From assembly GCA_964016885.1 (NCBI GenBank), contig CAXHJY010000870.1, positions 1 through 26,655 on the forward strand: a stretch of 26,655 nt of DNA. Direction: 5' to 3'. Source of the DNA: Eledone cirrhosa (Eukaryota). This document shows, one piece after another, positions 4,382 to 5,142 of the stretch. The stretch's first letter is position 1. Each line of letters opens with the position of its first letter. The translations under genes and the position numbers were made by a program. The notes below the pieces were generated by a model. It made no database searches, had not been told where the DNA came from, and was given only the letters and a program-made list of their open reading frames with translations.

Positions 4382-4578
4382 ATAACGGAAGAAGGTGTGG
4401 TAAGGAACCAGTTGGACCATAACGCACCAAAGTACTCAATACTTAGGGTAGTAGAGTGGGTAATATGAACGAGTAGGACCCCGACGGCTGAGCTCAAGTC
4501 GTTTCGACGTCTAATTCTGGACAGAATTAGCCGTCGAAACGGCTTGAGCTCAGCCGTCGGGGTCCTACTCGTTCATAT
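4382..4578. mobile_element. Fold-back element (family B) with hammerhead 3' half
   Basis: Inverted arms 4463-4519 and 4522-4578; hairpin followed by GAAA-CGGCT-loop-AGCCG-TC; relatives at 4665-4790, 4950-5142 and 8514-8672. Confidence 0.75.
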
Positions 4579-4579
4579 A

Positions 4580-4658
<79 letters not shown>

Positions 4659-4664
4659 GACTAA

Positions 4665-4913
4665 AAAGGTGTGGTAAGGAATCAGGTGGACCATGACGCA
4701 CCAGAGTACTCGATATTTGTGGTAGTAGAGTGGGTAATAGGAATGGAGTCAGGACCCCTACGGGTGAGCTCCGGCCGTTTCGACAGCTTGATCCGAATAG
4801 GGCTTCAACACAGTTTCAGTCTACAAACATTTAACTCTCAAAATCAACACTCGCAACCAAACAGGAATCCCGAGGGAGTGGTGTCTACAGAGAGGAACAC
4901 AAACCACACATCC

Positions 4914-4915
<2 letters not shown>
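4665..4915 (-). mobile_element. Diverged family B copy joined to additional sequence
   Basis: 4665-4790 aligns with 4390-4510; minus strand GTC-GAAA-CGG-loop-CCG-TA-GGGGTCC. Confidence 0.65.
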
Positions 4916-4949
<34 letters not shown>

Positions 4950-4953
<4 letters not shown>

Positions 4954-5139
4954 AACGACTAGGACCCCGACGGCTCAGCTCAAGCCGTTTCGACGGCTAA
5001 TTCTGGACTGAATTAGCCGTCGGAACGGCTTGAGCTCAGCCGTCGGGGTCCTACTCGTTCCTATTACCCACTCTACTACCCTAAGTATTGAGTACGTTGG
5101 TGCGTTATGGTCAACCTGGTTCCTACCACATTTCCTTCG

Positions 5140-5142
<3 letters not shown>
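4950..5142. mobile_element. Fold-back element (family B), inverted relative to 4382-4578
   Basis: Same palindrome centred at ~5005, followed by the reverse complement of 4382-4465. Confidence 0.75.

Follow-up and report, generated by a model that had tools for sequence, protein, structure and literature searches.

Inverted stubs of a likely Penelope-type element in Eledone cirrhosa: where and how the copies turn

Introduction

Why do several copies of one short repeat turn back on themselves at nearly the same place, just upstream of what resembles the 3' half of a hammerhead ribozyme? The question is raised by a contig of Eledone cirrhosa (CAXHJY010000870.1, assembly GCA_964016885.1), of which the whole stretch of 26,655 nucleotides was analysed and is referred to here as the window. 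It consists of AT-rich DNA of animal type that is rich in (TA)n and holds a satellite, LINE ends and small palindromes. A first-pass annotation had described a repeat family B in this window and had ascribed its fold-backs to stem II of the ribozyme, which would act as a self-priming hairpin on the cDNA, create palindromes and thereby destroy the ribozyme. Inverted, 5'-truncated copies with a tail on one side are the standard unit of Penelope-like elements (PLEs) (PMC8557442), and self-priming was proposed in 2013 from the palindromes at their junctions (PMC3846280). The mechanism behind the inverted ends of PLEs has been named as a task for in vitro work (PMC8557442). In the literature covered, which included few subscription journals, we found no report that places a start site within the hammerhead of a PLE or that invokes twin priming for the inverted ends of these elements. 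We show here that family B has an architecture that is already known and that the evidence does not support priming by a ribozyme stem. It is likely that the copies turn where the copied RNA begins, rather than by a ribozyme stem that primes its own copy.

Results

Four copies of family B lie near the positions first assigned to them, as judged by a search of the window with the 15-mer AGCCGTCGAAACGGC (six matches at three or fewer mismatches, 0.01 expected from 100 shuffles) and by alignment. Read in the sense of GAAA, an arm passes from a short leader through AGCCGTC, GAAA, a helix with a GAGCTC loop and GTC to GGGG. Thereafter it either ends in (TA)n about 41 nt past GAAA or continues for about 80 nt more. 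The succession of GAAA, helix III, GUC and GGGG had been annotated correctly; helix III has 6 bp, and loop III holds the palindrome GAGCTC. ORF listing gave no long open reading frame at the copies.

Copies 1 to 3 are fold-backs, as had been claimed. Copy 1 joins a long arm with tail (4382..4522, minus strand), starting 17 nt before GAAA, to a short arm (4523..4578, plus strand) that starts 13 nt before GAAA and has its short end in (TA)n. Copy 2 has a short arm (4952..5009, minus strand), which starts at A, 18 nt before GAAA, and a long arm (5010..5142, plus strand), which starts 12 nt before the GAAA position. The latter carries GGAA, as first noted; this is a private change, since A stands at 5023 in 99.7% of summed depth. 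Thus copies 1 and 2 consist of one short and one long arm apiece, with the tail on one arm only. Copy 3 combines a long arm (8535..8672, plus strand) with a left arm of 20 nt (8514..8534, minus strand) that ends directly after GAAA (GAAA|TATA), and its centre is a perfect palindrome about the single base 8534. Copy 4 belongs to a second subfamily and is a single long arm with no fold-back (4665..4797, minus strand) that starts about 16 nt before GAAA and extends to about 4797. It retains four helix III pairs and GUA, in agreement with the earlier description, and its 5' part matches the consensus of a loose end that sequencing-run contigs show before 5014 (see below). All seven outer arm ends in the window sit in (TA)n, which would mask a target-site duplication.

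Two observations concern the arrangement of the copies. At its 5' end copy 4 is joined to about 105 nt of unrelated sequence (4800..4906), which matches only itself in the window and terminates in (TA)n; template-switch capture may explain it. Copies 1 and 2 agree in the plus-strand orientation of their centres, their long arms point outward and copy 4 is enclosed between them, so that a composite or serial insertion is possible.

It had been reported that the copies turn at one hairpin with different loops and arm lengths. A different register is indeed used by copy 3 (17 nt), but the centres of copies 1 and 2 are equal in length, with 14 nt between the GACG.CTA and TAGCCGTC blocks, and differ from each other in one base. 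The left strand of copy 1 reads GACGTCTA, not GACGGCTA as first given. The inversion centre of copy 2, the supposed stem II, occupies 4992..5021 and corresponds in register to 4506-4535 of copy 1. The loop measures 4 nt in copy 1 and 1 nt in copy 3. Differences in arm length are real as well, but they originate at the outer ends, which are equivalent to about 5063 or 5142, and not at the turning point.

For an estimate beyond the window, four of 14 listed sequencing runs were used, three of one sample (X1, X2 and X3) and one of a second study (X12). The segment 4996-5143 matched 9,887, 10,288 and 9,439 contigs in the three runs of the one sample and 21,357 raw reads in the second study; family B is a very abundant repeat family. 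Loose ends of these matches were inspected in 24 of 541 rows, that is at six places in each of the four runs. Those behind 5064 pass into (AT)n, and those behind 5124 reach the long end and then (AT)n. The family has two fixed outer ends.

On the inner side, the loose end before 5010 ends in TTAGTCCA (88-101 contigs per run, agreement 0.47-0.50) and that before 5014 in TTAGTTCGGATC (73-80 contigs, agreement 0.49-0.51, 0.68 in the raw reads). Past about ten common letters, the consensus of these upstream loose ends becomes AT-rich and depends on the run. With the segment 4968-5030, 3,699 contigs of X1 were matched, and six of 35 loose-end places were inspected, four of them upstream of the arm. 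The largest of those listed, behind 5009, comprises 56 contigs and is heterogeneous (agreement 0.38). Loose ends behind 5013 (33 contigs, 0.59) and 5016 (26 contigs, 0.57) are AT-rich, and that behind 5014 (14 contigs, 0.51) begins TAGTCCA. Judged from its consensus, the 5014 loose end reads as a second fold-back centre with a perfect palindrome around AATT. Among nine joints listed for the segment 4996-5143, all seven that link opposite strands have one side at 5010-5020. Their far sides span 5041-5090 and may represent more truncated second arms or breaks at indels of the second subfamily. Read ends at 4999 and 5011 in X12 fall on AATT and were set aside as likely restriction cuts of a reduced-representation library, not biology.

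Depth falls steeply over the same interval. In X1 the summed depth was about 2.7M over the arm, 1.14M at 5007-09, 0.45M at 5010-12, 0.26M at 5013-15 and 0.09M at 5019-21, with 0.015M at the right and 0.56M at the left edge of 4968-5030. Such sums over contigs do not measure copy number, hairpins may have been assembled too rarely, and part of the fall is due to the second subfamily, which departs from the reference at about 4999. About 3-5% of arm depth crosses the centre in the register of copies 1 and 2, a crude figure obtained by division by the mirror-image values at the left edge. About 10-17% of arm depth extends 3-6 nt further, into AT-rich sequence.

The claim that turning points crowd into a short interval immediately 5' of GAAA is supported. 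The seven arms in the window begin 12-18 nt before GAAA, whichever arm of a fold-back extends further inward begins, in all three, at A or G of the same AGTCC, and TTAGT(C/T)C is kept at the inner boundary in both subfamilies. The boundary is resolved to about 3 nt, because the reference mismatches at 5010. The initiator consensus is YYANWYY. This pattern occurs at 1.2-1.3% of window positions, that is with a chance of about 8% within a zone of seven bases, so that a match is weak evidence. We infer from the pattern and its position that the inner boundary may be a transcription start at the initiator-like TTAGTYC. At the predicted cleavage site there is no sudden drop in depth (3.51M, 3.43M and 3.14M over 5036-5050), and hence the template of most copies was not cleaved RNA. 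In the Penelope element of D. virilis the promoter and the start site lie within the pLTR (PMC2377424), and unprocessed RNA has been described as the main substrate in the PLE PAc of anole (PMC11167929).

Just downstream of the inner boundary, 5022..5048 on the plus strand is probably the 3' half of a type I hammerhead, judging by its motifs: GAAA (GGAA in this arm), the 6-bp helix III with its palindromic loop, GUC and GGGG. The GAAA, helix III and NUH elements are all present, and 89-92% of the helix III cells are paired in an alignment of seven rows. The same seven rows hold no compensatory change, so that the fold gains no support from covariation. Variants at 5024-5025 or 5042-5050 do not occur among the 40 of 62 rows listed. 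Two changes in helix III, 5026 C>T (1.6%) and 5041 C>T (11.6%), retain wobble pairs, and the loop-closing pair is variable (5038, 22.7%). Overall 5022..5048 varies less than 5051-5057, in which positions 5051 and 5056 differ in more than half of the depth. GAAA, the A15.1-U16.1 pair, the palindromic loop III and the NUH triplet are hammerhead-like; a longer helix III and the lack of a visible CUGANGA, helix I or native helix II partner set family B apart from a hammerhead.

The search for the other half gave negative results in the copies and the loose ends listed. CUGANGA is absent from the family B copies, as had been stated (none of the 12 CTGANGA sites of the window lies within a copy), and from the loose ends listed. 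A partner for helix II is seen solely as the inverted arm and is absent in copy 4 and in the listed loose ends. Likewise, the sole upstream ACCCC that could serve as helix I partner for GGGGU is the inverted arm, and a descriptor scan of the window gave no match in family B. A permuted hammerhead of type SGC was considered and rejected, CTGANGA being absent from both strands of every copy. Rfam listed no hammerhead among 150 of 237 window matches and none among 36 matches in 4660-5330; these results are uninformative, as the descriptor-positive hammerhead at 5269 (minus strand) was missed in the latter segment. Arm folding z-scores are unremarkable. A hairpin that encloses GAAA competes with helix III and likewise has no covariation support. 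In this context, AGCCGTCG occurs twice in each arm of consensus type (5015-5030 and 5038-5045), which gives rise to the competing hairpin.

A link of family B to PLEs, as first proposed, is supported by the anatomy of inverted pLTRs, the one-sided tail and the (TA)n flanks. The copies are likely stubs of a Penelope-type element, a new family of known architecture. With the inverted-pLTR unit of EN+ PLEs they have in common the head-to-head, 5'-truncated inverted copy (three of four copies), a palindrome at the junction, a tail on one arm and an AT-rich target (PMC3846280, PMC8557442). In contrast to that unit, a whole family B unit measures only 160-200 bp and has no ORF, its inner ends lie within about 10 nt of each other, and its tail has about 80 nt compared to the 30-40 nt published for EN+ PLEs (PMC8557442). 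The parent of an EN+ unit would code for a telomerase-like RT and a GIY-YIG endonuclease.

Within the PLEs, likely membership of family B in the Hydra clade is suggested by the tail hairpin and its distance from GAAA, together with the (TA)n target. The clade is further characterised by RT and endonuclease motifs (DKT, RWK and CxCX5C, with no CCHH). The bulged hairpin is found at 5070..5095 (plus strand), 4432-4456 (minus strand), 4706-4730 (minus strand) and 8600-8624 (plus strand). Its pattern, which was drawn partly from these very copies, matches four times in the window and not at all in 100 shuffles. Larger variants fall in the loop or bulge (5080-5082 and 5089, 4-17%), while the two stem changes listed stay below 1%. 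Hydra families insert in (TA)n (PMC8557442), and in a comparison by eye the tails of Hydra-2_Ajap and Hydra-2_Amil share with family B a bulged hairpin followed by GAG(T/C)AC. The hairpin lies 48-50 nt after GAAA in family B; in Hydra-2_Ajap the distance, again by eye, is 51 nt, and in Hydra-2_Amil it is 56 nt. Hydra consensus elements differ in having a whole hammerhead, with a helix III of 3-4 bp compared to 6 bp in family B (PMC8557442 File S2). The exact family B motif was not found in the PMC8557442 supplement or in the searched part of the PMC4209133 supplement. A palindromic loop and a C in front of GAAA, as in family B, are also listed among the features of PLE hammerheads (PMC4209133). 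Pattern scans gave two matches in metagenome contigs, both GC-rich and unrelated beyond the pattern, and none in viral contigs.

Two further systems invite comparison. The anole PLE PAc has a tail between two internal RT start sites and resembles family B in that its 3' ends are fixed at two sites past the hammerhead and its template is uncleaved, but it belongs to a clade different from that of the Hydra-like family B (Frangieh et al. 2024, PMC11167929). Animal non-LTR retrozymes are likewise short, non-coding, PLE-related and associated with hammerheads (PMC7229834, bioRxiv 10.64898/2026.07.22.740005). They form tandem arrays with a whole hammerhead per unit, whereas the family B copies in the window are not tandem and hold half of the motif.

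Discussion

How do such stubs arise? The reading that we favour, with moderate confidence, is that a fixed RNA start and paired priming by the reverse transcriptase of a Hydra-type PLE, followed by head-to-head joining, yields these (TA)n-flanked stubs. The template RNA would probably begin about 18 bases before GAAA, so that the hammerhead's 5' half would never have been part of it. At the (TA)n target both nicked strands would serve as primers, each of them starting reverse transcription at one of two internal sites, which correspond to the short and the long end. Both cDNAs would run off the end of the RNA and their 3' ends would be joined with 0-6 nt of microhomology, the central hairpin being a product of this joining. 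Many unfolded copies stop at the place where the short arms of copies 1 and 2 stop (5064), which favours an RNA-primed second arm, and the 1-nt loop of copy 3 could hardly be formed by one strand, which favours two cDNAs. The arms of copy 1 have in common 5061 C>A, a variant that borders on the (TA)n flank and accounts for 1.1% of depth, and those of copy 3 share their subfamily variant. This fits one template source per insertion, while snap-back or later conversion fit equally. Paired priming does not explain why the junction lies in the same register in copies 1 and 2, where there is almost no microhomology. No parent with an ORF or an intact hammerhead was seen among the copies and the loose ends listed.

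It is conceivable, if doubtful, that the hammerhead of the parent is split, with a transcription start or an intron inside the region of helix II. RNA made from the element's own promoter would then be limited to GAAA, helix III and the cut site and would be unable to self-cleave, while the whole ribozyme would be assembled in RNA that comes from an upstream unit by read-through or splicing. The stubs would be cDNAs of strong-stop type primed in pairs, and the pile-up would map the 5' end of the RNA at base resolution in thousands of genomic copies.

Compared to paired priming, snap-back of a single cDNA, which has the same fixed RNA end but a single priming event, seems unlikely to us. The reverse transcriptase would run off the 5' end of the RNA, and the cDNA would fold on one or two chance pairs and extend on itself. 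Such self-priming is what the palindromes at PLE inverted junctions had suggested (PMC3846280), it accounts as easily for variants common to both arms of one copy, and the 4-nt loop of copy 1 is sterically possible. However, a 1-nt loop as in copy 3 and the zero-loop centre deduced from the consensus are hard to form within one strand, and the coincidence of the short arms of copies 1 and 2 with the 5064 end of unfolded copies points to RNA priming.

The model from which this study started is quite improbable. It assumes a native stem II hairpin in the parent on which the cDNA primes itself, so that a palindrome is made and CUGANGA is lost. The pile-up of turning points just 5' of GAAA is what it predicted, and AGCCGTC is conserved save for CpG-type changes, as expected of the 3' strand of stem II. 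The clustering is real, but its cause is likely a different one. Bases next to a fold-back axis pair with their own inverted copy, and the hairpin of GACGGCTA and TAGCCGTC is therefore uninformative about a native stem II; its 5' strand is merely the inverted copy of the arm. The central hairpin is a product of the inversion itself. DNA folding of single-arm cDNAs left the last 9-13 bases unpaired for all three fold-back copies, so that in the observed register no primer is ready. Moreover, copy 4 lacks the partner strand, the loop of copy 3 has a single nucleotide, and several centres exist. Intact copies had been predicted to carry ACCCC-CTGANGA upstream. None appears among the loose ends listed, and neither GACGGC nor CTGANGA was found upstream in copy 4 or in the listed loose ends (eight upstream rows among the 24 of 541, and four places among the six of 35). 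A parent with stem II should depart from the reference behind 5021, where none of these six of 35 places lies. A raw-read consensus before 5014 (agreement 0.68) has GGCTT, which could pair with AAGCC and may stem from few loci. In addition, an edge-corrected depth of about 5% at 5016-21 compared to about 3% at 5025-30 leaves room for a rare parent that departs after GAC. Another family of the window has its axis (25971/25979) immediately 5' of helix I and an intact ribozyme; there is no general stem II rule for fold-back axes. As for the supposed destruction of the ribozyme, our preferred reading has a template that lacks the 5' half of the hammerhead, and nothing would be destroyed. A CTGATG hexamer in the consensus of the 5013 loose end was rejected as a core candidate, as it lies on the strand opposite to the arm and has an agreement of 0.59.

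An intron inside the hammerhead would place the boundary at a 3' splice site, with splicing intermediates piling up and splicing assembling the ribozyme. TTTAG follows a T-rich stretch in the loose-end consensus and reads as such a site, and an intron of D. virilis Penelope ends at the 5' end of helix I (PMC4209133). We nevertheless regard this as very unlikely, because the arms in the window retain AG or G, which a spliced product loses, and because the loose end at this place is heterogeneous (0.38) and has no common exon 1. A single palindromic, MITE-like ancestor amplified as a DNA unit, which the first-pass annotation had itself named as evidence against its model, could explain that copies 1 and 2, about 490 nt apart, share centre register and plus-strand orientation, a register held by a few percent of a very large family, but it is highly improbable given that copy 3 has a different centre and copy 4 none, that the loop sits in the long arm of copy 1 but in the short arm of copy 2, that the terminal repeats are unequal and at least two centres occur in the window, and that about 95% of arm depth, on a crude estimate, does not cross the centre of copies 1 and 2.

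So abundant a family, whose arms have two fixed ends on the outside and start within a narrow zone on the inside, offers a large natural data set on which twin priming can be set against snap-back and from which the start of the RNA can be read.

The window holds further hammerheads and fold-backs. The descriptor scan gave type I layouts at 25980 (plus strand) and at 21388, 5269, 3403 and 1089 (all minus strand), and two long, doubtful matches at 24696 (plus strand) and 692 (minus strand). Those at 5269, 21388, 3403 and 1089 have a short helix III and belong to at least three other families. A fold-back of another family (25893-26047) carries a whole Hydra-style type I hammerhead on its right arm, with the core at 25980. 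Fold-backs of unrelated sequence lie at 186-574, 6380-6740, 19970-20164 and 20345-20569, mostly beside (TA)n, with loops of 0 to 29 nt where measured. CAGAAGA replaces the core on both arms of the fold-back at 19970-20164, and a zero-base loop is found in another family at 458/459.

Among the remaining repeats, nearly identical minus-strand pieces at 4220-4362 and 25385-25645 have translations like the 3' end of a LINE ORF and are presumably RTE-like. A minus-strand ORF remnant with zinc-finger-like CxxC and HxxxH motifs (17881-18464) is likely a LINE C-terminus. A satellite of 80-bp units, about 70 in number and about 95% identical, fills 10400-16200. A dispersed SINE-like repeat occurs at 1-157, 2370-2870, 5660-5830 and 7300-7475, and its end is found in tandem at 2370-2740.
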